DNA of 64,000 nt from an uncultured Clostridia bacterium. GTDB lineage: Bacteria > Bacillota > Clostridia > Christensenellales > UBA1242. Shown in pieces: positions 8,967-64,000 of the stretch (position 1 is the first letter of the stretch; each line of letters opens with the position of its first letter). Under the pieces are notes generated by a model. That model was not told the origin of the DNA, searched no databases, and worked only from the letters and a program-made list of their open reading frames with translations. Where the stretch lies: contig CALWRJ010000010.1 of assembly GCA_944383915.1 (NCBI GenBank), forward strand, positions 139,828-203,827, read 5' to 3'. The position numbers were made by a program, and so were the translations under genes.

Positions 8967-9057
8967 AATTTTTTACTATTTTTATTGATTTTTAACGATT
9001 TTTTATAAAATTTAAGTACTATGCATAGGTATTATGCACAGTGTTATGCAAAATATT

Positions 9058-22511: not shown

Positions 22512-22520
22512 ATTTACCTC

Positions 22521-29414: not shown

Positions 29415-29760
29415 CAATTATGGAAGTTATTTTCTAAATAAAATTTTAGCCACAATTACTAATTACTAATTTCTAATTCCTAATTATTTACATTTTTCCG
29501 CTACGCGCGGAGCGGTGCTGTGGACCGCACAGGTCAATAGCGTATGCAAGCATACGCGGAAGTCCGAAAATATTATTGCATTTCTCTTTTATGTTAACAC
29601 TAAAATATGTTAGTGTTTAATTAGAAAAAGGAAGTTTATATATTTATTAAGCTTCGCGCGCCAGCGCACTTTAATTGCTAATTGCTAACCGCTAATTGCT
29701 AATTGCTATTTCTCGCTTTGCGAGTAAAATTGCTAATTCGCGTTTACGCGTAAGTTTTTT
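29415..29760. repeat. mosaic intergenic repeat element (locus 2)
   Basis: AATTATGGAAGTTATTTTCTAAATAAAATTTTAGCCACAATT (also at 56813), an ACTAATT/TCTAATT/CCTAATT array, core copy 1, GCTAATT arrays, and the mini-hairpin CTCGC-TTT-GCGAG. Confidence 0.85.
29498..29639 (+). repeat. structured core of mosaic element, copy 1
   Basis: CCGC-TACGC-GCGG, CTGTG-GACCG-CACAG, AATAGC, GCGTATGC-AA-GCATACGC, GGAAGTCCGAAAATATT, AACACTAA..TTAGTGTT, AATTAGAAAAAGGAAGTTTAT. Confidence 0.8.
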
Positions 29761-30408: not shown

Positions 30409-30843
30409 TTACGCTTCGCTTTACGCAACTCCGTTATGCGCTTCGCCATTCGGCTTCGCTTTATTTTGAATTTTGAATTACGGGCGCTTGTGCGCGAAGC
30501 TTTTTTATAGATAAATAAACTTCCTTTTTAATTTCATATTAACAAAATAATGAAATGCAATATTAATTACAGACTTCCGCGTATGCTTGCATACGCTAAT
30601 GAGCCAGCGGGGCAACAAAAGTATTAGTGGTCTAAAAGTGAATTGTACTCGCCGTAGGCGTATTGCTTGGACGGTCACCGTCCCGCTCCGCGCGTAGCGG
30701 AAAAAAATGCGAAGCATTTTGCTTTCTGTGCAAAAAGATTTTGCGTTAGCAAAAATTTTTGCCAAAAACCTAAACAAAACAAACAATATAAAGAAGCAAA
30801 AACAAACCAAAAAAATTAAAGAAAAAATAACAGTGATTTGCTG
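30409..30843. repeat. mosaic intergenic repeat element (locus 3, inverted relative to the others)
   Basis: TTTGAATT units, core copy 2 in reverse orientation, then the palindrome pair GCAAAAAGATTTTGC / GCAAAAATTTTTGC and an A-rich tract running into the 3' end of rsmI. Confidence 0.85.
30515..30700 (-). repeat. structured core of mosaic element, copy 2 (reverse orientation, ~45-nt longer)
   Basis: The reverse complement carries CCGC-TACGC-GCGG .. GCGTATGC-AA-GCATACGC GGAAGTC .. ATTTCAT..ATGAAAT .. AAAAAGGAAGTTTAT. The extra segment matches 54300-54350. Confidence 0.8.
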
Positions 30844-34118: not shown

Positions 34119-34347
34119 TAATAATTAGGAATTAGTAATTAGGAATTATGGAAGGTATTTAATATTAATTTTATACCCAGCAATAACCGCTAATTGCTCA
34201 TTGCTAATTGCTAATTCACGCTTTGCGTGGTAGATTGCTAATTGATAATTCTCGCAAAGCGAGTAGGCTTGCGCGCACGCGCACATTAATTGCTAACTGC
34301 TAATTGCTAATTGCTAATTTAATTTTGAATTTTTGTAAAATTCAAAA
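34119..34347. repeat. mosaic intergenic repeat element (locus 4)
   Basis: AATTAGG/AATTAGT array, ATGGAAGG..TTTTATACCCAGC, GCTAATT arrays, CTCGC-AAA-GCGAG, GCGCGCACGCGCAC, and the palindrome AATTTTGAATTTT-GT-AAAATTCAAAATT at the prsA-like stop. Confidence 0.85.
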
Positions 34348-36087
34348 TTAATACAAATCATCATACACAGACGGGTTTTTCACGATGTCTTTCCCTGCTT
34401 TTACAGCATTTAAGATGCTTGCTTCGTAGACATTGTAACTAGTTAGGGTTACTTGTTCAATAATTGCGTCAAGCATTGTTTTGTTGTAAAGTGGGTTAAG
34501 ATAGTAGCCATTGAGTTGCGCTAAAATGCTTGCGTCACTCATACCACCAACACTGATTGACTGTGCTTTTCCTGTATACATAATGATGTGGTAGCCATAC
34601 TCGGTTTCTACAAGCCCAGAATAAGTGCCAACACTTCCAGCGCCGTTATTATATAAATCACGGCTAGTGTTTGCGAATGCTTCTACCATACTATCTTTGT
34701 CTGGGTCAAGTGGAATGTAGTAGCAAGATTCGGCATTTAAAGTTGCCTCATCGGTTGAGTACTTGTGCATAAAGTCGCGGAAAACTGCGAGTTTAGCGCT
34801 CTCTGTTTGAGCAACGGTCATTGCGCTATTTAGATTGCGAACGACTGCTTCAAGGCTTTCGTACTCGCCTGTTTCACGGTTGTATGCTTGAGTTTGTGAT
34901 TTTATGCGAGCAACATTTTTCTCGTACTCAGATTTGGTAATTTGTCCGTTTGTGAGTTTTTTTTCCTCGGCATCGATTGCGTCATTTTGTTCATCACTAA
35001 AACCAAACAAAATGTGGTTTACCTTAAAGTATCCGCTAGCATCGTACATATAGTACACTTGCTCGGCACTTGTTGGAATTAAATCGTCAAACGCATCCGG
35101 GTTCGCGTTAAAGTATTCGTACTGCGCGTTGTATAATTCTTTAAATTTAGTTGCAACTTCGTTTACTGTAATTGATTGCGAGTCTAAGTAGTTATTTTGG
35201 AATGCGGTTAAAATCGCGTTTTCGTAGTAGATGTTGTATACTCTTTCAACTTCGCGCAAGAATGCTTCGCTGTTTACTTTACTCAAATTGCGGTCTGCTT
35301 CGTTGCGAAGGAGCCCGTTTATAAAGTCTGTCCACGCGTCATCGCTGTAAGAATCCTCGTGGTCGTTTGTTGTGTCATTGTCCATCATAACACTATCGGT
35401 ATACTCCCAATAGTTTTGGCGGAAGTTGTTGTACGCAAGTGTTGCTTTTTGAGAGAAAGTTAAGTCAAGTGTTGAATCAAAAAGCGCGATTGATTCGTTC
35501 TCAACGATTTCATCGTCATCGAGTTTTACAAGGGCGAACTCGCCTGTCGAATAGTCGTAGTAGTACTCATAAGTTTTTTCGTAAGCAGAGTATGCGGTGC
35601 TGTCTGTTTCGTCAGTTGGTTCGGTAATAGACACATCGTCCTGCGCTCTAAGGTCGTCTTCATAACTCTTTACTGCCGAATTAATGTAGTCGTACACACT
35701 GCGCCAAACTTCGTTTGACTCGTACATAGATAGAGTAACTTTTTGTACATTTAGTCTTGCTCTCTCGTCTGCCATATCGTCAGCCGTTAAGAAGTCGACT
35801 AAAACGGCACGGTCGAGCGCAAGGTCGAGAGTTTGCTCGACTCCGCTTTGAGTAGCGGTGCTAGAATTGTCAAAACGACTGTTGCCGATGCTCTTATAAG
35901 TAATAATTAAGTTTTCGCGAGTAACAACAACGCGCCCGTTGTCATAACTTGCGGCAACTTCGGCGAGTTGCTTATCCACATTTACAGTTACTAAATCGCA
36001 ACCTGCAAAAATAGGAATTAGCAAAACGCAAATCGCAATTATAAGGTACTTAAATATTGAAGTTGTTTGATTTTTTAATTTAGCCAA
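34348..36087 (-). CDS. PrsA/SurA-like peptidyl-prolyl isomerase lipoprotein (parvulin domain)
   Basis: Lipobox IFAGC; parvulin signatures VNHILFGF and YGYHIIMY. I prefer the TTG start at 36087 (AGGAGA RBS) to the track start at 36156. Confidence 0.7.
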   Translation of the reverse strand: MAKLKNQTTSIFKYLIIAICVLLIPIFAGCDLVTVNVDKQLAEVAASYDNGRVVVTRENLIITYKSIGNSRFDNSSTATQSGVEQTLDLALDRAVLVDFLTADDMADERARLNVQKVTLSMYESNEVWRSVYDYINSAVKSYEDDLRAQDDVSITEPTDETDSTAYSAYEKTYEYYYDYSTGEFALVKLDDDEIVENESIALFDSTLDLTFSQKATLAYNNFRQNYWEYTDSVMMDNDTTNDHEDSYSDDAWTDFINGLLRNEADRNLSKVNSEAFLREVERVYNIYYENAILTAFQNNYLDSQSITVNEVATKFKELYNAQYEYFNANPDAFDDLIPTSAEQVYYMYDASGYFKVNHILFGFSDEQNDAIDAEEKKLTNGQITKSEYEKNVARIKSQTQAYNRETGEYESLEAVVRNLNSAMTVAQTESAKLAVFRDFMHKYSTDEATLNAESCYYIPLDPDKDSMVEAFANTSRDLYNNGAGSVGTYSGLVETEYGYHIIMYTGKAQSISVGGMSDASILAQLNGYYLNPLYNKTMLDAIIEQVTLTSYNVYEASILNAVKAGKDIVKNPSVYDDLY

Positions 36088-40171: not shown

Positions 40172-40726
40172 ATAATACATCCCCCTAATATTTATTTGTT
40201 CAAAATTTTTATAAATTAGCAATTAGCAATTAGCAATTAGCAGTTAATGTGCGCGTGCGCGCAAGCAATATATTTTTTATTTTTTGTTATTTTTTTATAT
40301 TTTTATTGATTTTTTATTCAATTTTAGGCGAAAAGATTTTTGACTTCGCAAAAAACATTTTCGCGAACAAAATAAAATATTTTTTCAAAAATTACTGCCT
40401 TAATTCCTAATTTCTAATTACTAATTATTATTTATGTCCTACGCGGACGGCGGTGCGGGCTGTCGTGTTGCTATATATCCTATAACCACTATCACTTTCG
40501 CCAGACTTTCCGTATCACCCCGTGATACTTCAAGGAGGGCGCACTCCCAATAGCGCGCAAGCGCGCGTGCGCTGCGCCGTTCGGCTTGCTTTAATTTTGA
40601 ATTTTGAATTTTGAATTTTGAATTAAGGCTGAAATTATTTAAATATAATATTAATTTTATACTCAGCCTTAACTGCTAATTGCTAATTGCTAATTGCTAA
40701 TTAAAAATTTGTTTTGCGTTGCAAAA
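40172..40726. repeat. mosaic intergenic repeat element (locus 5)
   Basis: AATTAGC x4 (40214-40244), T-rich tract, palindromes, CCTAATT-type array (40401-40427), core copy 3, TTTGAATT x4 (40603-40624), hairpin TTAAGGCTGA..TCAGCCTTAA, GCTAATT x4 (40673-40702). Confidence 0.85.
40436..40567 (+). repeat. structured core of mosaic element, copy 3 (5' part, with insertion)
   Basis: GTCC-TACGC-GGAC .. GTATCAC-CCC-GTGATAC .. GGCGCACTCCCAATAGC GCGCGC-AA-GCGCGC. Confidence 0.7.
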
Positions 40727-41572: not shown

Positions 41573-41988
41573 TAGGGTACTCCTTTAAATATTTATATCT
41601 TTTTTAATTGTTGCCCATCTCGTTTTAATTAGCAATTAGCAGTTAGCAATTAGCAATTAAGGCTGAAATTTATTTTATATCCTTTTTTGTTGTTTCGTTT
41701 CTCGTTTTAATTAGCAATATTACGAGCAAACGCGAATTAGCAATTAGCTGTCTAACTTGCTACACAAGAATTAGCAATTAGCAGGTAGCAATTAGCAGTT
41801 AATGTGCGCGTTCGCTACGCCTTTGGCTTGCTTTAATTTTGAATTAGGAATTTTGAATTTTGAATTAAGGCTGAAATTATTTAAATATAATATTAATTTT
41901 ATACTCAGCCTTAACTGCTAATTGCTACCTGCTAATTGCTAATTCTTGCGTAGCAAGTAAGATTCCTAATTCTCGCTTTGCGAGTATA
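41573..41988. repeat. mosaic intergenic repeat element (locus 6), includes a 48-nt inverted repeat
   Basis: Arms at 41755-41802 and 41911-41958 (47/48 complementary) flank GC box + TTTGAATT units + the TTAAGGCTGA..TCAGCCTTAA hairpin. Also carries the module AATTAAGGCTGAAATTT..TATCCTTTTTTGTTGTTTCGTTTCTCGTTT. Confidence 0.85.
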
Positions 41989-43339: not shown

Positions 43340-43475
43340 AAAATAATGTGTCACTTAAAAATTAGAAATTAGGAATTAGGAATTAGGAATTAGGAATTAG
43401 GAATTAAGGCTGAAATTTATTTATTTTAGGAAATAACTCCTTAACTGCTAATTGCTAATTGCTAATTGCTAATTT
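43340..43475. repeat. mosaic intergenic repeat element (locus 7)
   Basis: AATTAGA/AATTAGG x7 (43360-43409), AAGGCTGAAATTTATTTATTTTAGGAAATAACTCCTTAA, GCTAATT x4 (43446-43474). Confidence 0.85.
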
Positions 43476-43507
43476 AACAAAAAAGAGCATTTTGATGCTC
43501 TTTTTTG

Positions 43508-43509
<2 letters not shown>
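43476..43509 (-). terminator. bidirectional Rho-independent terminator at the groEL stop
   Basis: AACAAAAAAGAGCAT-TTT-GATGCTCTTTTTTGTT, overlapping the TAA of groEL. Confidence 0.8.
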
Positions 43510-45178
<1,669 letters not shown>

Positions 45179-46422: not shown

Positions 46423-46644
46423 CCTCGCTTAAATTTATGCGAAGCGTAATTTTTTTAATTTTGAATTATGAATTTTAAATTTTGAATTATTGCTGGGTAT
46501 ATTATTTTTTTAGATAATACCTTCCACAATTCCTAATTCCTAATTTGGAAGGTTTCTTTCCTTAACTGCTAATTGCTAATTCTCGCGAAGCGAGTAAGAT
46601 TGCTAATTTCTAATTCCTAATTAATTTTGGACAAAGTCCAAAAT
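46423..46644. repeat. mosaic intergenic repeat element (locus 8)
   Basis: TTTGAATT-type units, TGCTGGGTATATTA.., CCTAATT units, GCTAATT units, CTCGC-GAA-GCGAG TAAGATT, and the terminator palindrome AATTTTGGAC-AAA-GTCCAAAATT at the CPBP stop. Confidence 0.85.
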
Positions 46645-47826
46645 TTAAAGCCCCACAATAAATGAAAATATTGTTAAAAATACCATTAAAAATATGGTAA
46701 TATACATAAACAAGTTGTCGCTGGCGCGCGGTGGTTTATATTCGTCTAATTCGCTATAAATTAAAGTATTTAGGGGGCTTCCTTCGAGTTCGCGTTCAAG
46801 ATGACGAAGTGAAAGTTGCCCGCTGTCCACCTTTTGCTTTAAGTCGTTTGCGGACGCGTGGTTAAATAGATTTAGTAGTTCGAGTTCGTTCTTGAAATTG
46901 ATTTCTTTTTCCATTCCGGTGCCTTTCACCGCGTCATATAGATTTTTCTTAAAACGCTTAAATTTTGAGCGCTTGTTCTCGACAAACAATCCCGAAAGGC
47001 ACATTCCTATTAAAGATATAACAAGGCACAGCACTAAAAAGGATACTAATAGGCTTACGAAAATATTGCTGTTTGTTAAAAATGAGTTTATGCTATTAAA
47101 TAATCCCCCGCCGACCCAGTCGTACGCGGTGGCGTATTCGATATAGATTGAGCAGAGATTGACCGTTCCGTGAATAATCATTGCGGGCCAAATGCTTCGG
47201 CAAATGTATGTTGTAGCGCCGAGCACAAGTCCAACCACGAACGCGTAGCCGAATTGTTCGATATTTAAGTGCGCGAGACCGAATAGGAGCGCGGAGAGTA
47301 AAATTGCGCGTTTTAGTCCGTTATTGCGCATATTTCCAAGCATCAAGCCCCTGTGCGCTGTTTCCTCGCCAAAGCCTGGCAATAATACTGTTGAAACAAG
47401 GGTGATTAAAAAGGTTGCCCAAACGGGTAGATAAGTTACACCGCCCGAGCCCGTGCTTTGTGTGTACCCAAAAAGCGATAATAGTGTTAGCCAAAAGGAC
47501 GACACATACACAACAACGATGTACATAAGTATCCCTAGGCCGAACGCGATGAGCAACGATTTAAACGATACTTTTTTAAAGAAAAATCTGTCCGCCGTTT
47601 CTCTAAAAGATTGTTTTGCTAGCAATTTCCACAACAAAAAGGGAATGGCAACCATAGCAATTAGTTGCACAAAGAGCGAAAATAGCAAGTTATTTAACGC
47701 CACGTCTAAATTACTAAAAGCGCCCAAATTCCAAATTATGCGGAACAAGATGTACGCCAAAATTGCTACAAAATACACGAGCCCTGCGTAAAAAACGCGT
47801 TTGTTTTGAATAAATTTATTTTTCAT
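46645..47826 (-). CDS. CPBP-family intramembrane glutamic protease (CAAX protease-like)
   Basis: Motifs GFGEETAHRG, FGLAH and HGTVN. Start at 47826 forms an ATGA overlap with the upstream paralog; the track start at 47958 is unlikely. Confidence 0.7.
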   Translation of the reverse strand: MKNKFIQNKRVFYAGLVYFVAILAYILFRIIWNLGAFSNLDVALNNLLFSLFVQLIAMVAIPFLLWKLLAKQSFRETADRFFFKKVSFKSLLIAFGLGILMYIVVVYVSSFWLTLLSLFGYTQSTGSGGVTYLPVWATFLITLVSTVLLPGFGEETAHRGLMLGNMRNNGLKRAILLSALLFGLAHLNIEQFGYAFVVGLVLGATTYICRSIWPAMIIHGTVNLCSIYIEYATAYDWVGGGLFNSINSFLTNSNIFVSLLVSFLVLCLVISLIGMCLSGLFVENKRSKFKRFKKNLYDAVKGTGMEKEINFKNELELLNLFNHASANDLKQKVDSGQLSLRHLERELEGSPLNTLIYSELDEYKPPRASDNLFMYITIFLMVFLTIFSFIVGL

Positions 47827-48904: not shown

Positions 48905-49260
48905 TGTTGTTTAAATTTTTGGCAAAAATTTTTGCTAGCGCAAAATCTTTTTGCACTGAAAACAAAATTTTTTTAGTTATTTCTGCCTTAATTCCTAATT
49001 CCTAATTCCTAATTAACTTATTTTTTCCGCTACGCGCGGTGCGGTGCGAAGGCGCACTCCCAATAGCGCATAAATGCGCGGAAGCCCGTAAGTATTATTG
49101 CATTTCTTTATTTTTTGTGTAATTAGAAATAAGTTAGTATCAAAAATATATATTTTTATAAATTATTCCTTAATTCCTAATTACTAATTAAGCGTAGCCG
49201 AAAGGCGTAGCGTACATCCTTAATTCCTAATTACTAATTCCTAATTCCTAATTTATTCAC
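48905..49260. repeat. mosaic intergenic repeat element (locus 9), last units extend into the CDS 3' end
   Basis: Palindromes GCAAAAATTTTTGC (48922-48935) and GCAAAATCTTTTTGC (48940-48954), CCTAATT x3, core copy 4, CCTAATT/ACTAATT arrays. Array units encode the final ..LGIRN and the TAG stop of CDS 49234-50385. Confidence 0.85.
49027..49140 (+). repeat. structured core of mosaic element, copy 4
   Basis: CCGC-TACGC-GCGG, GTGCG-AAGG-CGCAC, CCCAATAGC, GCGCAT-AA-ATGCGC, GGAAGCCCGTAAGTATT, AATTAGAAATAAG. Confidence 0.8.
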
Positions 49261-50385: not shown

Positions 50386-50690
50386 ACTTTAATATATTAC
50401 AAATTAAATAATTTTAGAATAAAGAACATACCAAATTAGAAATTAGGATTCTTACTCGCTGACGCTCGAATTTTGAATTAGGAATTGTGAATTTTGAATT
50501 ACGGCTGAAATTATCTAAATTAATATTTTATACCCAGCCTTAATTTCCAATTCCTAATTTCTAATTCCTAATTTGCGCTACGCGCATAGGCTTGCGCGCT
50601 AGCGCACAACAACTGCTAATTGCTACCTGCTAATTGCTAATTCTTGCGAAGCAAGTAAGATTGCTAATTGCTAATTAAATTTTGAACTTG
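50386..50690. repeat. mosaic intergenic repeat element (locus 10)
   Basis: AATTAGA/AATTAGG units, TTTGAATT units, ACGGCTGAAATTATC..TATACCCAGCCTTAA, CCTAATT-type array, GCGCGCTAGCGCAC, GCTAATT-GCTACCT-GCTAATT signature, CTTGC-GAA-GCAAG TAAGATT. Confidence 0.85.
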
Positions 50691-51174: not shown

Positions 51175-53985
51175 TTAATTTGTGTTTTCAGCATCATCAT
51201 TATTTATTATTTCGGTGTTTTCTGCGGTTTCGTTTTCGTCATTTGCGTTTTCGTTTGAAGTATTTTCTGCGTTGTTTTCTGCGTTGTTTTCTGCATTTGC
51301 GTTTGAAGTGTTTTCCGCGTTATTTTCGCTGTTTGGGTTGTCTTGCTCGTTTGCTGGTTCATCTGGGTCGGCGGTAACGGTTGCGATGCTTGCGATTGTG
51401 TTACCGTTGCGGAGTTTCATCATACGAACGCCTATTGAGATACGGCTAACCTTACGGACATCGTTAGATTTTAGGCGAATAGTCATACCGTTGTTGGTAA
51501 TTAGGATAATATCGTCATTTGGTTCAATCTGGCGAAGTCCTACAAGGTCGCCTGTTTTTTCGTTAAATTCGCCAGCGCGGACACCCATTCCACCGCGAGA
51601 TTGGAGTCTATAATCTGTAATATCGGCGCGTTTTCCGTAACCGTTTGCTGTGATGGTAAGGACTTCGTTATTCGGTTTAATAATGCACATATCGACAAGT
51701 TTTGCGCCGTTGTCTAGGTGCATAGCCTTAACACCACGCGCGGTACGCCCGAGCGGACGGAGTTTTGTTTCGCTGAAACGGATACATTTGCCGGCGCTTG
51801 AAGCGACTAAAATATCGTCATCGCCCTTGCTGAGTTCGACTTTTACGAGTTCGTCCCCTTCGTCTAGCGAGATTGCTCGTTTGCCGACTTTCATAATATT
51901 GAAAAATTCGGTTACGGGCGTTTTCTTGATAAGTCCGTTTTTGGTTACCATAACGAGATAGCCCTTGCCGTTTGAAGTGTCCACGAAGTTTTCCTCGTTC
52001 TCGTTTTCGCTTTCGTCCTCAACGGTTTCGTCTGGCTCTAACGAGTTAAACGCGCTTTGCTCGGCAATGTCTGTTGTATCATCATAAACTGCGCCGTAAT
52101 TTGCCTTAGGGGTGAGCATTTGGTATGGAAGTCTAATCATCGCGTTTACGCTCTCGCCCTGGTTTAATTGAAGCAAATTGATAATTGCGCGCCCTTTGCT
52201 TGTTTTACTGCCTTCGGGGATTTCGTAGTTTTTAATTGAGTAAACTTTCCCTAGGTTTGTAAAGAACAAAATTGAGTCGTGGGTATTTGCGACAAACATA
52301 CGGTTTATGAAGTCGTTGTCCTTTGACTTGTGTGTAGTTATGCCGACTCCCCCGCGGTTTTGCGTGTGGTACTCGCTCAACGCCATTCGTTTAATGTAGC
52401 CTTGGGCGGTCATACTAACGACCATATCCTCTTTTGCGATTAAGTCCTCGACATCGAAGTTGCCGATATCGTGGCTAATTTCGGTACGGCGCGGAGTGTT
52501 GTATTTTTCCTTAATTTCGGTAAGTTCTTTTGCGATAATTGCAAGCACTTTGTTTGGGTTTTCCAAAATTGACTCGCACTCTTTGATGAAAGCGCGCAAG
52601 TCGTTTAACTCTTGTTGGAGTTTCTCGACTTCTAATGCGGTTAGACGAGCAAGGCGCATATCGAGAATGGCGTTTGCTTGTTTTTCGGAGAGTTCAAACT
52701 TGGTGCACAAATTAGTTAGCGCGTCCGTGCGTTCTTTACTGCTCTTAATAATATGGATAACTTCGTCAATGTTGGCGAGCGCGATAACTAGCCCTTCGAC
52801 AATGTGTGCGCGTTCTTTTGCGCGCTCGAGGTCGTACTTTGTCCTACGAACGATAACATCTTTTTGGTGTTCGAGGTAGTAGTACAACATTTCTTTTAGG
52901 TTTAAAACGCGGGGTTCGCCGTCCACGAGTGCTAGGAAAATAATTCCCATACTTGTTTGGAGTTGCGAATGTTTATATAGTAGGTTTAGGACGACTTGCG
53001 GGTTGGCATCGCGTTTTAGGTCGACAACGATTCGCATACCGTGGCGGTCGGACTCCTCTTTGATATCGGCGATTCCGTCAATTTTCTTATCTTTTACGAG
53101 GTTTGCCATTTGGATAATAAGTTGTGCTTTATTTACCTGGTAAGGTATTTCGGTAATGACGATTTTTGCCTTATTACCATCGTCCTCGATTTCGGCGCGA
53201 GCGCGTGTAACGACTTTCCCGTGCCCTGTTTTATAAGCCTGTCTAACGCCCATTCGTCCCATAATAATTGCGCCTGTAGGGAAGTCTGGGGCTTTTATGT
53301 AAGTCATTAGTTCGTCAATTTCGATATCGGGGTTATTAATTAGCGCGATAACGCCATCGATGACTTCGCCTAAATTGTGTGGTGGGATTGCTGTAGCCAT
53401 ACCTACGGCGATACCGTCAGCGCCGTTTACGAGCAAGTTCGGGTAGCGGGCGGGCAAGACAACGGGTTGTTGCAAGGTGTCATCGAAGTTTGGCGCGAAG
53501 TCGACTGAGTCTTTGTCGATGTCGCGGAGCATTTCGGCGGCGATTTTGCTAAGGCGCGCCTCGGTATAACGCTGTGCTGCGGCTGGGTCGCCGTCAATAC
53601 TACCGAAGTTTCCCTGTCCGTCAACGAGTGGGGCGCGCATTGTAAAGGGTTGTGCGAGGCGGACGAGAGCGTCATAGACTGCGGAGTCGCCGTGTGGGTG
53701 ATATTTACCTAGGACATCGCCGACAATACGCGCGCATTTACGGTATGGTTTATCGTTAAATAGGTTTAGTTCGCTCATACTGTACAAAATTCTGCGGTGG
53801 ACGGGCTTTAAGCCATCGCGGACATCGGGTATTGCACGCGTTACATTTACCGCCATTGCGTAGCCGATGAAACTCTCTTTCATTTCCTGGACGAGTTGGC
53901 GCTTTATAACGCGCGTGTTGTCCTGCTTGTCGTCAACAATGGGGTTCTCTGGTGTAATCGGTGTTGAATTTTCTTGATTTTCCAT
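51175..53985 (-). CDS. gyrA: DNA gyrase subunit A with acidic N/E/A-rich C-terminal tail
   Basis: 936 aa. ..[24 protein letters not shown].., active-site ..RYTE... The tail is ..[23 protein letters not shown].. (51178-51375). Confidence 0.97.
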
Positions 53986-54615
53986 AATTTTTTCCTTAAT
54001 TTTATTTATTTTTTGTTAATTTTATTTTTGTAGTTTTTTGTGTTTTTTGGGTTTGTTAGATTTTTTGTTTAGTTTAGTTTTGTTACTTTTTTGGCTTTAA
54101 AATTTTCACTTCGTGAAAACATTAAAGCACAGAAAACAAAATTTTTTCGCTTCGCTCAAATTAGCAATTAGCAGGTAGCAATTAGCAGTTGTTGTGCGCT
54201 AGCGCGCAAGCAATATAAATATTTTTAAAATACTACTGCCTTAATTCCTAATTTCTAATTTCTAATTCCTAATTATTTACTTTTTTCCGCTACGCGCGGT
54301 GCGGGACGGTAGCCCTTCCAGGCAATACGCCTACGGCGAGTACAATACTCTTTGAATATACTCAGCCTTAACTGCTAATTGCTAATTGCTCATTGCTAAT
54401 TCTTGCGAAGCAAGTAAGACTGCTAATTGCTACCTGCTAATTGCTAATTCGCGTGTAACGCGCAAGCCCCCGCGGACTCATTAGCAAACAAAGTTCGCGA
54501 AATCTATACCCAGCCTTAACTGCTAATTTCTAATTGCTAATTGCTAATTTGAGCGTAGCGAATAAAATTGCTAATTGCTAATTGCTAATTGTTTAATTTT
54601 GAATTACATTCAAAA
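53986..54615. repeat. mosaic intergenic repeat element (locus 11) separating gyrB and gyrA by 630 bp
   Basis: T-rich leader, TTTTCAC-TTC-GTGAAAA, AATTAGC..AGGTAGC signature (54159-54188) inverted again at 54420-54449, CCTAATT-type array, core copy 5, several GCTAATT arrays, and the palindrome GTTTAATTTTGAAT-TAC-ATTCAAAATTAAAC at the gyrB stop. Confidence 0.85.
54287..54350 (+). repeat. structured core of mosaic element, copy 5 (truncated)
   Basis: CCGC-TACGC-GCGG TGCGGGACGGTAGCCCTTCCAGGCAATACGCCTACGGCGAGTACAAT matches the extra segment of copy 2. A fragment CCCCCGCGGACTCATTAGC recurs at about 54467. Confidence 0.65.
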
Positions 54616-57155
<2,540 letters not shown>

Positions 57156-58370
57156 TCAATTTTTTGCAAAGTATTCCGCGCATTTCTTTTCGGCTTTTAG
57201 GGCAAATTTTTGAGCGCTTAAAGAGTCGCTATCTAGCATATCAAAAATATGTTCTTTTACGAGTTTGCCCGAGACAACTTGTTCGCGGTATGCACGGTAT
57301 TTTTCGATTTGTTCTTGTGAAAGCGAGTCGAGTTTGTTAGCGAACACGGAGTCGCAGAAGTCGACTAATTCTTTATTATACCGTGCAATCGCGCGAAGGC
57401 GGAAGTTATGTCGGCTGGCGTACTCGTCATCGTCACGCGCTATTTCGCCGTTGCCTTTTAGCGAGTGCCACCACGAATTTAGTCGTTTTCGGCGGTCGTC
57501 CGCGCAATCGGGTTTGATATGTGAGATATACAAGTACAGTAGTTTTTTAAACTCGGCGGTTTGCGCCGAAGTCTCGCGTTCGTTTTCGTTAAATACACTC
57601 GCGCTCTCGCCCATTACGAACTCGCGCCGAAGGATATTATTATTTAGCACATTCCACATACCGCAGAAAGTGGACACAACATCGGCGAAAGTTTCGAAGG
57701 GGGCGTTTCCGTATGATTCTGGCACGATTTTTTCTAAAATATCGTTCTCCCAGTTTGAGACGATGCCCTCCTCCATAAAGAGCGCGTACGGGTCGGTGGC
57801 GTATTTATTTTGAGAATCAACGCAGAAACTATAAAAGTGGTACGAGACATTGCCGAGGCGCAGAATTTCGGTATCGCGCACGAAACGGGGCCCTGAGTAC
57901 GAGTATATATAATTCGCCTTATTGAAGGGTTCGGTATGTCCGCCTGACATTGCGTGCAATAATTCGTGGACGAACGCGCCGGCGGTATTTTTGGAGAATG
58001 CCAGGTTATCGTCAAAGTCGGGCGAATGTATGTTTTCGTTGAGTTCGATTTTTTCGGAGATATTATCCTTAAAGAAGGGGGCGAAGTCGGGCGTTGTTTT
58101 TTCGCCTGTGCGCACGGTGTTTTCGTCCTGGTTGGTTATTTTAATGCTATTATAGCGTTTACCTTTATAAACGGTGGACTCGGTCATTCCAAAAATGCGG
58201 ACATCGGTTTCCCCAAAATGAAGTTTGGTATTTAGTATTCGCGCGACAATCTCGTAGCGCATTTCGGGGACGAGTGTCGAGACTTCGCGGTAGAACGCTG
58301 GAATCATTGTCGCGTACGGTCCAAATCTCTTATTTAGCAAATCTGCGTTTTCGATTTCTTTTTCTTTCAT
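57156..58370 (-). CDS. hypothetical HExxH (zincin-like) protein, paralog 1
   Basis: 404 aa. FVHELLHAM, downstream MEEGIVSNWENDILE, N-terminal KRFGPY. No signal peptide. Paralog of CDS 59029-60669. Confidence 0.5.
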   Translation of the reverse strand: MKEKEIENADLLNKRFGPYATMIPAFYREVSTLVPEMRYEIVARILNTKLHFGETDVRIFGMTESTVYKGKRYNSIKITNQDENTVRTGEKTTPDFAPFFKDNISEKIELNENIHSPDFDDNLAFSKNTAGAFVHELLHAMSGGHTEPFNKANYIYSYSGPRFVRDTEILRLGNVSYHFYSFCVDSQNKYATDPYALFMEEGIVSNWENDILEKIVPESYGNAPFETFADVVSTFCGMWNVLNNNILRREFVMGESASVFNENERETSAQTAEFKKLLYLYISHIKPDCADDRRKRLNSWWHSLKGNGEIARDDDEYASRHNFRLRAIARYNKELVDFCDSVFANKLDSLSQEQIEKYRAYREQVVSGKLVKEHIFDMLDSDSLSAQKFALKAEKKCAEYFAKN

Positions 58371-59050
58371 TTTTCCACTTTTAATATTATTTGTTTGATT
58401 GTTTAGTTTGTTTTGATTTTTTGATTTTATAGTTTTTTATTTATTTAGGCAAAAATTTTTGCTAACGCAAAATCTTTTTGCACTCAAAACAAAATTTTTT
58501 CGCTTCACTCAAATTAGCAATTAGCAGGTAGCAATTAGCAATTAACGCTGGGTTAAAAATTAATTTGGATAATTTCAGCCGTAATTTAAAATTCAAAATT
58601 CCTAATTCAAAATTCGAGCGCCAGCGAGTAAAATTCCTAATTCCTAATTATTTTACCCGCTACGCGCGGTGCGGTGCGAAGGCGCACTCCCAATAGCGCA
58701 TAGATGCGCGTTGTCCGTAAATATAATTGCTTTTCTTTTTTATGTTTACACTAAATTATGCTAATATCTAATTTATAAAAAGGAAGTTTATCTATTTATA
58801 ATTGCTTGCGCGCGTTCGCTATGCTTAAATTAGGAATTGTGAATTAGGAATTAGTAATTAAGGAGTTATATTAATATTATTTAATGCTTGCGCGCTAGCG
58901 CACAACAACTGCTAATTGCTAATTGCTAATTGCTAATTCTTGCGAAGCAAGTAAGACTGCTAATTGCTAATTGCTAATTGCTAATTCTTGCGAAGCAAGT
59001 AAGACTGCTAATTGCTAATTGCTAATTGCTAATTCTTGCGAAGCAAGTAG
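58371..59050. repeat. mosaic intergenic repeat element (locus 13), ends in a 48-bp x3 tandem repeat
   Basis: T-rich leader, palindrome pair (58448-58480), AATTAGC signature, core copy 7, AATTAGG units, GCGCGCTAGCGCAC, then 3 units of ACTGCTAATT(GCTAATT)3CTTGCGAAGCAAGTAAG (58907-59050) overlapping the 3' end of CDS 59029. My count may be off by 1 nt here. Confidence 0.8.
58656..58790 (+). repeat. structured core of mosaic element, copy 7
   Basis: CCGC-TACGC-GCGG, GTGCG-AAGG-CGCAC, CCCAATAGC, GCGCAT-AG-ATGCGC, GTTGTCCGTAAATATA, ..AAAAAGGAAGTTTAT. Confidence 0.8.
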
Positions 59051-60669
59051 GCTTGCGCAGTACTTGATTGCGCGGTGCTTGTGCTTGCTTGCGCAGGTGG
59101 CGGGGCGAGTTCGTTTTCCGCGATTGTTTTTTTGTCGTGGACGAACAATATTTTGCCTTCTCTTGCGCGTTCGTTCGTGTAGCGATTAAGTTCGCGCTCG
59201 TACGCCGAAGTCAGCCAACTAACTTTTGCGTAGCCCTTTTCGTTTTTGTCCTCGTCACGAAGCAAGCCTAGTGCAGTTTTTTTTAGCATATTGGGGCTGA
59301 CAAGACTTTTTCTTTTGCCTAAATAATCGAGGCGCTCGCTTTTATTTAGTGATTTAGTCTTGAGCAAATTCTCGAATTTCTCATCGCAAAATTTGATAAT
59401 ATTAACAAGGCTTTTTGCGCTTTCTATATAGTCTAGTTTTTCTAGGTCGACTTTGGCGTTTTGCGGTTCTCCCAAAAGGGTCAGCATAAAATCATTAAAA
59501 AGTTTATCAAACTGCTCCACCTCGCCCGCTGGCGTTTTTTCGCCGACATTCCCTGTCATATGTTGATTCCTCAACTCGCCGTTGCTCACCGCGTTATACA
59601 TACCCGCGATATAAGGCAGTGCGCCATAAGAGAGTGTCGGCACGAGATAAAAACTTTTTAGTTCATCGCAAAAGCCTAGATTTTCGGCGATATCGTTTGC
59701 CCAGTCCTCGACAACACCTTCCTCGCGGTAACGATTCACCATATTGTATACGGGCTGTTTTTTATTCCAAGTTCCGCGGTCGAACGCATCGCGCACGAGT
59801 TCTTGAGACAACTCCACCTTTCCGCCCTGTTTAAAGAACACTGTAATTGAGTTTTCGTTATTTTCTCTAACGCACTCTTTTAGGTCTATCATACAGTGAA
59901 GCATTTCGTGGATGAACGACTCGCGCACGGTGTATTTATTAATCGCGTTATTCACTTCGTTTATTTTTTCGAGGTTGTCTGTTTCGTCAATTTTTTTCAG
60001 GACCTCGCTAGTATTGAGTGCTTTAACGGTGGACAAGTTTCTATCGTTATCGAGCGCAAAGAAGTAATTTAGGTTTTCGGTAATTTCGGGCGGGACTGGG
60101 TCTATCTCGACAATAGACGGAATATTTTCAACAACTAAATTTTGTGGGGAGGCAGTTTCCTTTTTATCCTTTTCCTTTTTATTTAGAAGGGAATCGAAGT
60201 AAGCCTTACAAGACCGGGCGAACTCGTGGACATTGTCCCGTATTGGCTCGCCCCTTTTTCGCGCGTTTTGAGGCGTTTGCGCGGTATTCTGCGCGGGCGG
60301 TGGCGGTGTAGTCTGGTAAGCAGTGGCGTTTGGCGTTTGTGTCAAGTTTTGCGCCATTAAAGAAGGGGTTTTTTCTTGTGAAGGAGTATCTTGTGGTGTT
60401 GGGTCTAGGTTATGCGAGACCTGAACTGTATAATAGTACTTGCTGTCGTTGTAGTTTAACTCGCGTTTTGAGACCCCGCTGACGCCTTCAAGGTCGTTAA
60501 AGCGGAAGTTTACCGAGTTAAATCTATCGAATATTGTTTTGCGTTTCTCGGGGGTGCTGTCGACTAGTTGTTTATACAGTGCTGGCGCGAACATTCCAAA
60601 CGGTCCAAACCGTCTCCGCATATTCTCGCTATCAAGAAAAAATTCCCTTTCGCTTTCGTTAAAGTCCAT
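59029..60669 (-). CDS. hypothetical HExxH (zincin-like) protein, paralog 2, with P/Q/T-rich insert
   Basis: 546 aa. FIHEMLHCM, REEGVVEDWANDIAE, N-terminal RRFGPF. The last ~15 codons and the stop lie inside the repeat array. Confidence 0.5.
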   Translation of the reverse strand: MDFNESEREFFLDSENMRRRFGPFGMFAPALYKQLVDSTPEKRKTIFDRFNSVNFRFNDLEGVSGVSKRELNYNDSKYYYTVQVSHNLDPTPQDTPSQEKTPSLMAQNLTQTPNATAYQTTPPPPAQNTAQTPQNARKRGEPIRDNVHEFARSCKAYFDSLLNKKEKDKKETASPQNLVVENIPSIVEIDPVPPEITENLNYFFALDNDRNLSTVKALNTSEVLKKIDETDNLEKINEVNNAINKYTVRESFIHEMLHCMIDLKECVRENNENSITVFFKQGGKVELSQELVRDAFDRGTWNKKQPVYNMVNRYREEGVVEDWANDIAENLGFCDELKSFYLVPTLSYGALPYIAGMYNAVSNGELRNQHMTGNVGEKTPAGEVEQFDKLFNDFMLTLLGEPQNAKVDLEKLDYIESAKSLVNIIKFCDEKFENLLKTKSLNKSERLDYLGKRKSLVSPNMLKKTALGLLRDEDKNEKGYAKVSWLTSAYERELNRYTNERAREGKILFVHDKKTIAENELAPPPAQASTSTAQSSTAQAYLLRKN

Positions 60670-61037
60670 TGCTATTCCTTTTATTTTGATTTTTTGTTAT
60701 TTTGGTTTTGTTACTTTTTGGTTTGTTTTATTTAGTTGTTCCTTTTAGGCAAAAATTTTTGCTAGCGCAAAATCTTTTTGCACAGAAAACAAAAATTTTA
60801 AAATTTTCAGCCTTAATTCCTAATTCCTAATTCCTAATTATCTTTTTGCACTCCGTGCAGGGCGGGGATAGAGTCCCCGCGGACTCATTAGCGTATGCAA
60901 GCATACGCGGAAGTCCGTAAATATTTTTGCTTTTCTTTATTTGCTATTGCGCAATTAGAAAAGGAAGTTTATTGTTTATAAAATTGCTTGCGCGCGAGCG
61001 CCCCGTAATTCCTAATTCCTAATTCAAAATTCGAGCG
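60670..61037. repeat. mosaic intergenic repeat element (locus 14), one complete unit filling the whole spacer
   Basis: T-rich leader, GCAAAAATTTTTGC (60749-60762), GCAAAATCTTTTTGC (60767-60781), CAGCCTTAATT, CCTAATT x3, core copy 8, GCGCGCGAGCGCC, CCTAATT/TTGAATT units up to the recF stop. Confidence 0.85.
60847..60972 (+). repeat. structured core of mosaic element, copy 8
   Basis: TGCAC-TCC-GTGCA, GCGGGG-ATAGAGT-CCCCGC, CATTAGC, GCGTATGC-AA-GCATACGC, GGAAGTCCGTAAATATT, AATTAGAAAAGGAAGTTTAT. Confidence 0.8.
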
Positions 61038-62225
61038 CTACGCGCGAATGTTCATCTCCTTCACCACTCCGTCCTCCACCTTAAAGAGTTTATCGGGCAC
61101 TGCGGGGTAGTCCCATTCGGTGCAAGTTATCACGGTATTAAAGTTTTTGCAATACTTCATTAGGCGGTGGCGTCTATTCTCGTCAAGTTCAGACAAGACA
61201 TCGTCCAAAAATAAGACAGGCTTTTCAAAGAAAAATTTTTTGTACATAAACATTTCGGCAATTTTAAGTGCTAGCGCGGCGGTGCGCTGTTGTCCTAGAC
61301 TTCCTTCGGTGCGGAGTGGTATCCAGCGGTATTTTTCCGTTCTCAAATCGCCCCCAGGGACAGTTTGCGTTATGTAGCCGAGTTTGATTTCGAAGTCATC
61401 TAGATGCGCGCCCACATTCGTTGTACCTGTCGTGATGTCCCTTAAATAACTTGCGCGCATTTTTTCGGTGTAGACTTTGTTGAATGTCGAGGCGTGGATA
61501 TCGTCTAGCCTATCAAAAAATGTCTTGTAAGTGATGCGCAGGGTTTCTTTGTCGTCAGTAAGCAGTCGCATTGTTGCCGCGGCGAAGTCGTTTACCCAGC
61601 GGAGCATTTCTTTTCGGCGAAGCATAACGCGGATACTATCTCTGCCTATCAGCAAGTCCCACGGAATCAAAGTTGAGTCATAGCCACGCGGGTTGAGTTT
61701 GATTGAACGCAAGAGTGCGTTTCGCTGTTTGATTGAATTTTGCAAGTCGTTTAAGAGCCTCAAATACCACGAACAAGTTTGGCAGTTAATCATATCCATA
61801 TAGCGCCTGCGGTAAACCGGTCCACCGCGCACGATGTCGATTTCGTCAGGGCTAAAATAGACAGACGGAAAGTTGCCAACGATATCGCTCACCTTTGTGC
61901 TTGTTTGCCCGTCTATTTGGACAATTTTGCCTTTGTTAGAAAAAACACTCATTCCTAGCATATGCTCGCCATCGCGTTTAGAAAAAGTAATGCTAATCTC
62001 GTTATTTTTCTTGCCTGTTTGTATCGTTTCGGTGTCCTTACGCGTCCTAGGACTGCGCCCTATTGAACACATTCGCATAGCCTCTAAAATGTTCGTCTTG
62101 CCCGCACCGTTCGCGCCACAAATAACATTTAGCCCTTGCGCAAACTCGATTGTCTGGTCCTTTAAGTTGCGAAAATTTTTTACCGTCAACTTATTAATTT
62201 TCATTTTCTCGTTAAAATCTAACAT
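61038..62225 (-). CDS. recF: DNA replication and repair protein RecF
   Basis: Walker A GANGAGKTN, ..LSLGQQR-like signature EGSLGQQRTAALALK, Walker B LFLDDV. The start may be the internal MKINKL. Confidence 0.9.
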   Translation of the reverse strand: MLDFNEKMKINKLTVKNFRNLKDQTIEFAQGLNVICGANGAGKTNILEAMRMCSIGRSPRTRKDTETIQTGKKNNEISITFSKRDGEHMLGMSVFSNKGKIVQIDGQTSTKVSDIVGNFPSVYFSPDEIDIVRGGPVYRRRYMDMINCQTCSWYLRLLNDLQNSIKQRNALLRSIKLNPRGYDSTLIPWDLLIGRDSIRVMLRRKEMLRWVNDFAAATMRLLTDDKETLRITYKTFFDRLDDIHASTFNKVYTEKMRASYLRDITTGTTNVGAHLDDFEIKLGYITQTVPGGDLRTEKYRWIPLRTEGSLGQQRTAALALKIAEMFMYKKFFFEKPVLFLDDVLSELDENRRHRLMKYCKNFNTVITCTEWDYPAVPDKLFKVEDGVVKEMNIRA

Positions 62226-62519: not shown

Positions 62520-62983
62520 ATAATTTGAACAAAGTTCAAATTTTACGCTACGCTTAAATTTAAAATTTTGAATTTTGAATTTTGAATTAAGGAAGGTATA
62601 TTAATTTTATACCCAGCATTAATTGCTAATTGCTACCTGCTAATTGCTAATTCTCGCAAGGCGAGTAAGATTGCTAATTGCTAATTCGCGTTTACGCGTT
62701 TATGTATCCGAAAAAGGCAAAAATACACCCTTTTCGGTTGTGATAGAAAAGAAACCTTTCAAATTAGTAATTAGTAATTAGAAATTAGGAATTAAGGCAG
62801 AAATATCTAATTATTTTTTTAGGAAATACCTTCCTTAACTGCTAATTGCTAATTGCTAATTGCTAATTCTCGCAAGGCGAGTAAGATTGCTAATTGCTAC
62901 CTGCTAATTGCTAATTCTCGCAAGGCGAGTAAGATTGCTAACTGCTAATTGCTAATTTGATTAATTTTAAACAGTGTTTAAAA
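62520..62983. repeat. mosaic intergenic repeat element (locus 15)
   Basis: AATTTGAAC-AA-GTTCAAATT, TTTGAATT x3, AAGGAAGGTATATTAATTTTATACCCAGC, GCTAATT-GCTACCT signature x2, CTCGC-AAG-GCGAG TAAGATT x3, AATTAGT/AATTAGA/AATTAGG array, and the palindrome TTGATTAATTTTAAAC-AG-TGTTTAAAATTAATCAA at the vWA stop. Confidence 0.85.
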
Positions 62984-64000
62984 TTAATCAACATCATCAT
63001 CACAAGTAAAGTCATAATCGATATAGTGTACGAAAGTGCGGACGCGCAAATTACGCGTATTGCACAAAGTTTGCGTGCTTTGTCCTTCGGCAACGCTAAT
63101 ATCGTCTGGCAAAATGAATTTTATCCCTGTTACGCGCACATTCTGGCAAGACTCGCAAGAATGAGCAGGAACGGTCATTGCTTTTAGCCCGCGCTGGTAT
63201 TCGATGCCGTTTGAGTCGACTTCGGTAAGCGCAAGAGCGAGTGCCACCCTTCTATTCGGGCAGACATTTTGCAAAGTTAAATTTAATTCAATAATTCGTC
63301 CTTGTGATTCGAGCGCGTACTCGCCCAACTCGAATGTTTGCGTGTCGTTACAGTTATTCACCGTTAAATCAACTGGCGTAGGACACGGTTCTGGCTCTAC
63401 ATCGGTATTACAACAAATAACCGTTACGCTCGGGTTCGGGAAGTTTACCACATTCCCCTCTGCGTCCGAGTAAGTGATTGAGTCGTTAACATCTTTCGTT
63501 CCGCCTGTTGTAGCGGTGTGGCGCACGATAAAGTTTAGTTCGGCGCTTTCGGTCGAGTCTGTGCCGAGTTCGTCAATTTCCCAACGAAGCGAAGTACTGT
63601 TTAATTGAGTTGCCGTACCTTTGCTTACTGGCTCGATTGAAGTTATTTCAAAGTCAGGGTTAACGATTTCGTTTATAACGATTTGCGTTGCGCCTGCTTT
63701 GGTGATATTTTGCGCTAGGTCCTCAAAAAGTTGTTCGAGGTCGCTAGCGTCTGGCGTAACTGCCACGTGCGTTGCGGTTGGAAGCGAAGCCCACGCGTTT
63801 AGAGCCGAGACATCGATTCCATCGCTACCTATAAGCCCGATTACGAATATTTCGATGCCTTGTGCTTTTGCCTGGTCTGCAATTGGTGTTGGTGGAACGC
63901 CGATTGTCGTATTTCCGTCAGTGAACATAACAATCACCTTGTGGTTAGTAGACATAGGGTCGAAAAGGTCTATTGCGTGTGTGAACGCGTCTGCGTGGTT
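62984..64000 (-). CDS. von Willebrand factor A domain protein, C-terminal part (N-terminus beyond right edge)
   Basis: ..KVIVMFTDGNTTIG.. and ..GIEIFVIGLIG.. are vWA strands, followed by a Cys-containing beta-rich C-terminal domain. The frame stays open upstream of the track ATG to position 64000. Confidence 0.6.
   Translation of the reverse strand, partial: NHADAFTHAIDLFDPMSTNHKVIVMFTDGNTTIGVPPTPIADQAKAQGIEIFVIGLIGSDGIDVSALNAWASLPTATHVAVTPDASDLEQLFEDLAQNITKAGATQIVINEIVNPDFEITSIEPVSKGTATQLNSTSLRWEIDELGTDSTESAELNFIVRHTATTGGTKDVNDSITYSDAEGNVVNFPNPSVTVICCNTDVEPEPCPTPVDLTVNNCNDTQTFELGEYALESQGRIIELNLTLQNVCPNRRVALALALTEVDSNGIEYQRGLKAMTVPAHSCESCQNVRVTGIKFILPDDISVAEGQSTQTLCNTRNLRVRTFVHYIDYDFTCDDDVD

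Follow-up and report, generated by a model that had tools for sequence, protein, structure and literature searches.

Among the intergenic repeats of bacteria, neisserial intergenic mosaic elements (NIMEs) are arrays of 50–150-bp modules bordered by a common short repeat at which the modules reshuffle. Repetitive extragenic palindromes (REPs) have been described as palindromes of 20–40 bp in which one end bears an unpaired GTAG or CGTC tag; they frequently occur as inverted dimers, are associated with RAYT transposases and include sub-families with alternative complementary stem residues (PMC3733652). The bcr1 repeat of the Bacillus cereus group measures ~155 bp, shows compensatory base changes and 5-bp direct repeats, and has a distribution that is not conserved between strains; NIMEs are mentioned in the same work, as are Correia elements, which carry promoters into intergenic regions (PMC3184786). 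TAACTGA arrays, an AT-rich intergenic heptamer repeat of Beggiatoaceae, Cyanobacteria and Bacteroidetes, lie mostly just upstream of start codons (PMC4679880). Here, we consider a stretch of 64,000 nucleotides from an uncultured Clostridia bacterium (assembly GCA_944383915.1, contig CALWRJ010000010.1, positions 139,828 to 203,827), referred to as the window. It contains eight occurrences of a hairpin-rich, non-coding DNA element of 130–190 bases, the core, all of them between housekeeping genes. We regard it as somewhat probable that the core forms one class of module within a mosaic intergenic DNA repeat, non-coding and lineage-specific, which resembles BIME, BOX and bcr1 and has been spread and reshuffled as blocks. 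As such it is a new family of a known class; no sequence relative has been found, and the comparison with bcr1 is made by description.

The core and its copies

A preliminary description of this DNA, made from its letters, had listed eight copies of the core, and this set has been borne out by blastn with four copies as queries, by an nhmmer profile run with --max and by a covariance model run with filters off, all of which have returned the same eight sites and nothing else credible in the 64 kb of this one genome that the search covered. The covariance model, which that description had suggested, recovers those eight alone. The six full copies score 123–167 bits (E 4e-31 to 2e-22). Copies 60847 (60843–60978, +, 140 bits) and 56880 (56875–57013, +, 140 bits) are of type B, copies 58656 (58652–58797, +, 143 bits) and 49027 (49022–49146, +, 123 bits, with a degenerate 3' end) of type A, while copy 29498 (29493–29645, +, 167 bits) is a mosaic and copy 30515 (30509–30705, −, 135 bits) is the sole inverted one. 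Copy 40436 (40431–40567, +, 48 bits) is partial, its 3' half being missing, and copy 54287 (54282–54350, +, 33 bits) is truncated. The part of the window from 1 to 29 kb contains no core. A separate European Nucleotide Archive record, contig L102, is 99.86% identical to window positions 56616–58695, with three substitutions, none of them in the core. It holds copy 56880 base for base, and both of its ends fall inside repeats; the unchanged copy in an independent contig rules out an assembly artefact.

On the + strand, the core runs from a T-run through a first hairpin (H1), GCGG, a second hairpin (H2), CAATAGC or CATTAGC, a third hairpin (H3), the linker GGAAGTCCGTAAATATT..TTGC.TTTC and an optional AT-rich fourth hairpin (H4) to AATTAGAAAAAGGAAGTTTAT, and the linkers and hairpins are present in the copies as they had first been written down. 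Five copies carry CCGC-TACGC-GCGG as H1, two carry GTCC-TACGC-GGAC and one carries TGCAC-TCC-GTGCA, and the GCGG that follows H1 is invariant. H2 comes in three or four unrelated versions and H3 in four, the latter being near-perfect palindromes with a 2-base centre. The stems of H1 (4–5 bp), H2 (5–7 bp) and H3 (6–8 bp) are all perfect, and all GC stems are strictly Watson-Crick with zero G-T pairs. The best conserved parts are the linkers, which carry repeated GGAAGT and show a mean pairwise identity of 82–100%, compared with 54–76% in the hairpin regions. In copy 60847 (+), H1 occupies 60847–60859, H2 60862–60880 with an alternative hairpin at 60871–60886, and H3, preceded by CATTAGC, 60891–60908; the linker GGAAGTCCGTAAATATT (60909–60925), an AT-rich part and the 3' motif AATTAGAAAAGGAAGTTTAT (60953–60972) complete this copy. 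Copy 56880 combines H1 GTCC-TACGC-GGAC with H2 GCGGGG-ATAGAGC-CCCCGC and H3 GCGTATGC-AA-GCATACGC, and copy 58656 combines H1 CCGC-TACGC-GCGG with H2 GTGCG-AAGG-CGCAC, H3 GCGCAT-AG-ATGCGC and a degraded H4 that has two C-A mismatches on the + strand. Copy 49027 has GCGCAT-AA-ATGCGC as H3.

Terminal inverted repeats, as expected of a MITE, a miniature transposable element with inverted repeats, are missing from the six full copies, in which the first 25 bases share 4–9 matches (4–6 in five of the copies) with the reverse complement of the last 25. The 3' end of the core repeatedly shows TTTAT-like strings, and one stands directly 5' of H1 (copy 40436), in flanks whose AT-richness makes them uninformative on target-site duplication. 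A small open reading frame (ORF) after the AAAGGAAG motif has been rejected, as neither its start codon nor its frame is conserved among the copies. An integron attC site or a CRISPR array has likewise been dismissed, since the neighbours are housekeeping genes and repeat-spacer regularity is missing.

Covariation and mosaicism

When the eight copies are aligned by fitting to the model, 92% of the cells are paired compared with 84% in shuffles, a value reached by none of 500, and sliding the partners relative to each other abolishes the pairing. Six pairs have changed on both sides, a number that 30 of 500 shuffles reach and that comes from eight sequences and few events in a fitted alignment. 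All six are found in H1 and H3, three in each, with the pairing staying perfect, as in the change from CCGC/GCGG to GTCC/GGAC around the unchanged TACGC loop. Few independent events stand behind these counts, namely one H1 stem variant in two copies and two or three H3 variants. The variants of H2 and H4 differ in length and register and are for this reason replaced hairpins rather than mutated ones. Compensatory change, which had been proposed for three or four hairpins, has thus been retained for H1 and H3 and given up for H2 and H4. Stem-preserving variation can arise via palindrome-correcting template switching. The statement that covariation of this kind indicates selection on the structure rather than the sequence has proved too strong, since the linkers are the most conserved parts and since such variation is also seen in a family of 15 mini-hairpins in the same intergenic regions (see below). 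It is, moreover, a described property of REP DNA families (PMC3733652).

The hairpin types have been found to reassort between copies. Copy 29498 joins a type A H1 to a private H2 (CTGTG-GACCG-CACAG), a type B H3 and the H4 AACACTAA..TTAGTGTT, and copy 30515 joins a type A H1 to type B H2 arms and a type B H3. Between the H2 arms of copy 30515 lies an insertion of ~70 bases; copy 40436, which has GTCC-TACGC-GGAC as H1 and GCGCGC-AA-GCGCGC as H3, carries a unique insertion of ~95 bases between the H2 arms GTGCG..CGCAC, and in both copies the arms are still complementary. The start of the insertion in copy 30515 recurs in copy 54287, where it follows H1 before a heptamer module cuts the copy off. 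This copy is split, with ~115 bases of heptamer and mini-hairpin modules between 54282–54350 and its displaced fragment CCCCGCGGACTCATTAGC (54465–54485, +), which consists of the 3' arm of H2 plus linker and is 95% identical to copy 60847 (blastn). Read from the sequence, reassortment, insertions and splitting indicate recombination and decay among the copies rather than purifying selection acting uniformly on a single RNA.

The surrounding modular system

The core is embedded in intergenic regions that, between 29 and 64 kb, make up 20% of the stretch and have 32% GC, compared with 44% in coding sequence. These regions are rich in heptamer arrays of ~4.7 units of AATTAGC, AATTAGG or AATTTTG, or of their complements, for which 48 overlapping three-unit pattern matches on both strands and ~70 period-7 arrays (Tandem Repeats Finder) have been counted; the pattern CCTTAAYT(NCTAATT)3 occurs 16 times in the window with 0 expected. 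Many arrays form inverted pairs around a AAGGCTGAAAT..CAGCCTTAA junction and hence long AT-rich hairpins. Five of the eight cores are flanked by arrays in direct orientation, as in copy 60847, which has CCTTAATT(CCTAATT)3 on its 5' flank (60811–60839, +) and a second array of equal orientation on its 3' flank (61006–61025). Every full core is followed at its 3' end by a GC palindrome module, GCTTGCGCGCnnGCGC (60986–61001, +, in this copy), which also stands alone beside heptamer arrays at 34267, 50590, 57084 and 58886 and, on the − strand, at 54211 and 40266. Array regions extend over 14467–14636, 29454–29708, 34123–34319, 40214–40702, 41627–41944, 43360–43474, 46452–46622, 48989–49253, 50468–50676, 54159–54591, 56590–57136, 58512–59034, 60811–61025 and 62560–62960.

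A further module, the P-module, has been located on the 5' side of copy 60847 (GGCAAAAATTTTTGCTAGCGCAAAATCTTTTTGCAC, 60748–60783, +). It comprises 36 bases, GGCAAAAATTTTTGCTARCGCAAAATCTTTTTGCAC, with the double palindrome GCAAAAATTTTTGC plus GCAAAATCTTTTTGC, and is present in four copies (the others at 58448–58483, +, 48921–48956, +, and 30728–30763, −) in addition to diverged ones at ~54100–54140 and ~40330–40370. It lies 5' of the core; read in gene direction, an A/C-rich, G-poor leader comes next and, ~80–135 bases away, a start codon, and the module stands upstream of several unrelated genes. Judged from this placement, the P-module may be described as promoter-like, a putative copied promoter or operator region; the promoter consensus scan has shown no enrichment. 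Next to copy 30515, the P-module and A-rich leader (30728–30843) face the 3' end of a convergent gene. As this copy brings P-module and leader without a following gene, core, P-module and leader must have moved as one block.

Mini-hairpins of the form CTYGC-NNN-GCRAG-TA occur in 15 copies, 14 of them on the + strand, and their Y and R positions are always complementary (T-A or C-G, never mixed) while the loops vary. They are located at 29712, 34251, 41945, 41972, 46582, 50643, 54402, 56773 (−), 57068, 58939, 58987, 59035, 62653, 62869 and 62917. Tandem duplications of array-plus-hairpin units have also been observed, with periods that are set by the heptamer arrays: 82 bp in 2.2 copies at 56590–56770 (98% identity) and 48 bp in three copies at 58908–59049 (100% identity), the latter running into the 3' end of the ORF at 59029–60669.

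At the stop codon of most genes lies a hairpin that is AT-rich and perfect. On many − strand genes such hairpins include the stop codon itself (54590–54618, 34320–34350, 62958–62986, 46624–46647 and 43478–43510), an example being UAAUUUUGAAU-GUA-AUUCAAAAUUA after gyrB; they are built of AATTTTG heptamers arranged as inverted pairs, and most have no U-run. The heptamer pattern has also been found in 74 metagenome contigs (L018–L091) of 25–66% GC from very different habitats, in none of which the core occurs, and in many of these a start codon and an AAGG ribosome-binding motif on the opposite strand directly adjoin the arrays. By analogy with the TAACTGA arrays (PMC4679880), we take the pattern in these contigs to be a widespread 5'-leader array.

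Comparison with relatives

The best-matching GyrB cluster representatives, proteins of metagenome-assembled genomes labelled 'Clostridia bacterium', are 86–90% identical to GyrB of the window, and closer relatives within the 90% cluster reach 91–94%. One of these, contig L097 (GyrB 93.6% identical), is fully syntenic over dnaA, VWA, recF, two paralogous genes of unknown function, gyrB, gyrA, Sm_multidrug_ex, two CAAX proteases, groES and groEL. Its spacers are short where those of the window contain a core: 124 bp vs 368 bp between recF and the first unknown ORF, 4 bp vs 658 bp between the first and the second, 74 bp vs 629 bp between the second and gyrB, and 99 bp vs 445 bp between Sm_multidrug_ex and CAAX. 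The core has not been found at these orthologous recF-orf-orf-gyrB and Sm_multidrug-CAAX spacers of L097 and other relatives, and the more distant L010–L017, L092–L096 and L099–L101 have equally compact spacers and no core. Presence and absence between relatives, as known for MITEs, is therefore seen, but what has been gained is a whole block and not a single core.

In its 537-bp gyrB-gyrA spacer, L097 carries a P-module with leader (12375–12410, upstream of gyrA, in a TTTGCA-17-CATAAT arrangement), the junction AGGTAGCAATTAGCAGTTAAGGC and a 26-base piece, GCGGTGCGTGTGCGCACTCCAAATAG, that resembles H2 plus linker. Since P-module, junction and core-like piece are all held by L097, the building blocks predate the species. 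The full core and its spread into other spacers are derived in the lineage of the window, and the content of L097 points to amplification from pre-existing sequence. A GC-rich segment of ~200 bases in L097 (12129–12330), which begins with the 26-base core-like piece, contains several hairpins and has no Rfam match, might be the ancestral source of the core.

Wider searches have given no further copies. The covariance model has no match in 567 kb of related and metagenome loci, nor in the closer relatives, and a linker-anchored pattern run against genome contigs has returned nine single chance matches from unrelated phyla, with no further similarity. The exact 26-mer of H3 plus linker has 0 matches in metagenome contigs, viral contigs have given 0 core matches, blastn against plasmids and phages has given 0, and a literature search by sequence strings has found nothing relevant.

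RNA or DNA

The preliminary description had left it open whether the core is a structured RNA or a REP-like DNA element. At gathering scores, Rfam recognises tRNAs alone in the window, and at permissive thresholds (E up to 5) there is no credible overlap with any core, the one overlap seen being at chance level (E 0.7), so that the element matches no Rfam family at either threshold. A consensus scan has revealed no −35/−10 promoter site common to the copies, and there is no hairpin plus U-run at either core end on either strand. The T-run precedes H1 on the + strand and reads as an A-run after the hairpin on the − strand; with the run thus misplaced relative to H1 on either strand, an intrinsic terminator has been rejected. 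The two strands fold about equally well, with fold z values of −3.5 to −5.2 for type B copies on either strand (−5.2 on + and −5.0 on − for copy 60847) and values near background for type A copies (+0.07 to −2.7 on +, −0.3 to −3.3 on −). In near-perfect intergenic hairpins, G-T vs A-C shows no asymmetry once a mismatch inherited with the GC palindrome module has been discounted; an apparent excess of C-A as a strand signal has been rejected, as it consists of this one mismatch. The RNA half of the earlier reading has consequently received no positive support, be it from Rfam, promoters and terminators, strand folding, the lack of G-T pairs or the 2-base centre of H3. With stop-codon hairpins on one side and the P-module downstream, the core may lie in untranscribed spacer.

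The DNA half has fared better in part. The core works like a REP mosaic, with short GC-rich perfect palindromes, alternative complementary stem residues, intergenic position, mosaicism and absence from relatives, and is not a member of that family. TAGCGT/GCGTAG is similar to the CS-6 motif found in the single-strand origins of plasmids, a likeness that has been dropped as a short-motif coincidence.

Orientation and gene context

The window is chromosomal DNA, as is seen from RecF (61038–62225, −), GyrB (54616–56526, −), GyrA (51175–53985, −), GroES/GroEL, Mfd, HolB, Tmk, Pth and others; a gene start at 60669 (−) lies near copy 60847, on its P-module side. Seven of the eight cores are on the + strand, as had been noted. 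Their description as all antisense to the flanking genes holds for six, each of which is antisense to the gene on either side; copy 29498 is in sense orientation with the two + strand genes that flank it, and copy 30515 lies between convergent genes. The paralogous pair between recF and gyrB (57156–58370 and 59029–60669; 404 and 546 aa) has no Pfam or NCBIfam match, and its position is kept in all relatives examined (L010, L097, L099).

Near 30 kb, the GC content steps from ~30% (1–29000) to ~42% (30000–64000). The low-GC part is nearly free of repeat modules, with arrays only at 14467–14636, and encodes BspA-type LRR and Big_3 surface proteins, Ku and an ATP-dependent ligase (8052–9894), restriction-modification genes and a cluster of five tRNA genes between 6819 and 7654. 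Genes for two C-5 cytosine methyltransferases and for an HNH endonuclease are located at 21525–24763. From 29246 to 64000, GGCC (0.14 per kb), CCGG (0.32) and GATC (0.11) are almost missing from coding sequence, and GCGC and CGCG occur at about four times expectation (~9 per kb).

Proposed origin and alternatives

According to the mosaic-repeat reading that we favour, blocks consisting of the core, the GC palindrome, AATTAGN arrays and often the promoter-like P-module with its A-rich leader would have been copied into intergenic regions in the ancestry of this one species. The heptamer arrays of ~33 bases at the borders of nearly every module would act as portable homology, and unequal recombination or template switching between them could duplicate, insert, delete and reshuffle the modules. 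The hairpins would then be DNA palindromes whose pairing is maintained through copying itself, through palindrome-correcting template switching or by a hairpin-reading factor, and not by the needs of a free-standing RNA; any transcribed copy would be a passenger of neighbouring transcripts. Several observations weigh against this reading. Plain recombination does not predict the bias to the + strand (seven of eight cores, 14 of 15 mini-hairpins), and the conservation of the TACGC loop on two different stems (seven of eight copies), like that of linkers above stems, is unexpected for passive junk. No mobilising enzyme or recombination intermediate has been seen, and the core-like piece of L097 is short (26 bases, E 0.03). 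From the conserved loop, the conserved linkers and an enrichment of GCTACGC/GCGTAGC (19 observed vs 7 expected, mostly in intergenic hairpins), it follows that something, be it a protein or an RNA function, may read the hairpins.

Such a reader is central to the proposal of a miniature single-strand DNA transposon of REP/RAYT or IS200/IS605 descent (PATE), in which an HUH enzyme encoded elsewhere would bind the H1 loop TACGC/GCGTA and copy the core into the lagging-strand template. A conserved loop on variable, strictly Watson-Crick stems, cores without terminal inverted repeats, the GCTACGC/GCGTAGC excess and the lineage-specificity of the element would all suit it, as would the strong orientation bias in a region that is likely replicated in one direction (GC skew, gene orientation). 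We nevertheless consider it unlikely. The link to RAYT transposases, which had been suggested from the GCGTAG on the opposite strand of H1, has not been supported, since GTAG is no unpaired terminal tag there and the ~50 ORFs scanned in the 64-kb window include no match to a transposase family, whether RAYT or other Y1/HUH enzymes (Pfam, NCBIfam). The hairpins are not inverted dimers, no GTAG or CGTC REP families are reported from Firmicutes (PMC3733652), and the cores are themselves mosaic and move with large neighbouring blocks, which fits recombination better than precise cut-and-paste. A bolder version can be granted only a small chance: the hairpins would be recognition sites of an enzyme that copies whole intergenic cassettes between genes, each with stop-codon hairpin, multi-hairpin core, heptamer connectors and portable promoter plus A-rich leader. 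It is suggested by the TACGC loop on variable stems, the strict Watson-Crick pairing and the strand-biased orientation, and through such copying an ancestral operon from recF to gyrB would have been broken into genes with promoters of their own. If true, the element would be of a new kind, one that spreads itself between genes and rewires their expression, and Firmicutes would have their first REP/RAYT-like system.

A role in RNA could be played in cis, in gene-sense intergenic transcripts of the − strand, where the element would protect or process neighbouring mRNAs as REP, BOX and bcr1 hairpins do. Six of the eight copies have co-oriented neighbours, genes that in relatives make up a tight operon, the core holds no intrinsic terminator on either strand, its − strand folds well, H4 of copy 58656 pairs on that strand through G-U where the + strand has C-A, and both bcr1 and BOX are transcribed (PMC3184786). 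Such a role is nonetheless doubtful, as the core lies upstream of the P-module and downstream of stop-codon hairpins and may thus fall within spacer that is not transcribed, copies 29498 and 30515 are oppositely related to the genes beside them, and the G-T vs A-C comparison gives no strand asymmetry once inherited mismatches are discounted. Less probable still, we find a DNA binding platform very unlikely, i.e., an insulator, nucleoid or topology site like those of gyrase and IHF at BIMEs, selected as a separator of newly individualised transcription units. Perfect palindromes with minimal centres, conserved linkers with repeated GGAAGT and the position between stop-codon hairpins and promoter-like modules would agree with it, but a binding protein has not been identified, copies are truncated and interrupted, and none lies in the first 29 kb. 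Scarcely credible is an independently transcribed, multi-copy structured small RNA from the + strand, antisense to housekeeping genes. Several hairpins with conserved single-stranded linkers, covariation in H1 and H3 and the common orientation of seven copies speak for it; against it stand the missing Rfam match, common −35/−10 and 3' hairpin plus U-run, variable heptamer arrays directly upstream, truncated or interrupted copies, type A copies that fold no better than shuffles (z 0.07 to −2.7), an H3 loop of 2 bases and the absence of the element from every relative examined.

If the mosaic-repeat reading is true, a recent and massive invasion of intergenic space has widened spacers from 4–124 bp, as in the relative, to 368–658 bp, and a promoter-like module has been copied before genes that are packed as an operon in relatives. 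The window would then offer a natural case for the origin of mosaic repeats, array-driven module shuffling and operon break-up. That the stems of a multi-copy element change in perfectly compensatory fashion does not by itself indicate a structured RNA. Such repeats also break metagenome assemblies, as the ends of the independent contig inside them illustrate.

Comparison with known repeat systems

With the TAACTGA arrays and the cyanobacterial STRR repeats, the likeness is confined to the connector arrays and does not extend to the core; the heptamer is a different one, and the arrays of the window are far denser and combined with GC hairpins. NIMEs share the repeat-bordered modules and Correia elements the carriage of promoters, whereas the connector here is a tandem heptamer array instead of a 20-bp inverted repeat, and the core has no terminal inverted repeats. 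By description (PMC3184786), bcr1 is a Firmicute intergenic repeat of similar size with compensatory stem-loops and a non-conserved distribution; unlike the mosaic, block-embedded core, for which no clear target duplication has been seen, it is a discrete, mobile and transcribed element with 5-bp direct repeats. The BOX elements of Streptococcus pneumoniae are likewise intergenic repeats of a Firmicute, with modular boxA/boxB/boxC structure, predicted folding and variable module content (PMC3184786), but their modules and sequences are others, and they have neither heptamer connectors nor an attached promoter module.

REPs and bacterial interspersed mosaic elements (BIMEs), known from Enterobacteria and Pseudomonas, resemble the core in that GC-rich short intergenic palindromes and conserved linkers are combined in a lineage-specific and abundant manner, often inside one operon. 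The REP dimensions, a stem of 5–13 bp and a loop of 2–20 bases, are found in single hairpins of the core and not in the 130–190-base unit, and alternative complementary stem residues are present in H1, H3 and all 15 mini-hairpins. The core has no unpaired GTAG or CGTC end tag: GTAG occurs only on the opposite strand of H1, across loop and 3' arm (CCGC-GCGTA-GCGG), and neither tetranucleotide stands beside H2 or H3. Head-to-head or tail-to-tail dimers are not formed either, as the hairpins of the core differ from each other and keep one fixed order and orientation. Unlike REPs and BIMEs, the core consists of three or four different hairpins with a ~70-base AT-rich tail, is joined by AT-rich heptamer connectors, and resides in a Firmicute, a phylum for which no GTAG or CGTC REP families have been reported (PMC3733652). 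The element thus works like a REP/BIME mosaic and is not a member of it. Its class is well known; what is unusual is how dense and modular the intergenic invasion is and that an operon seems to have been broken up.

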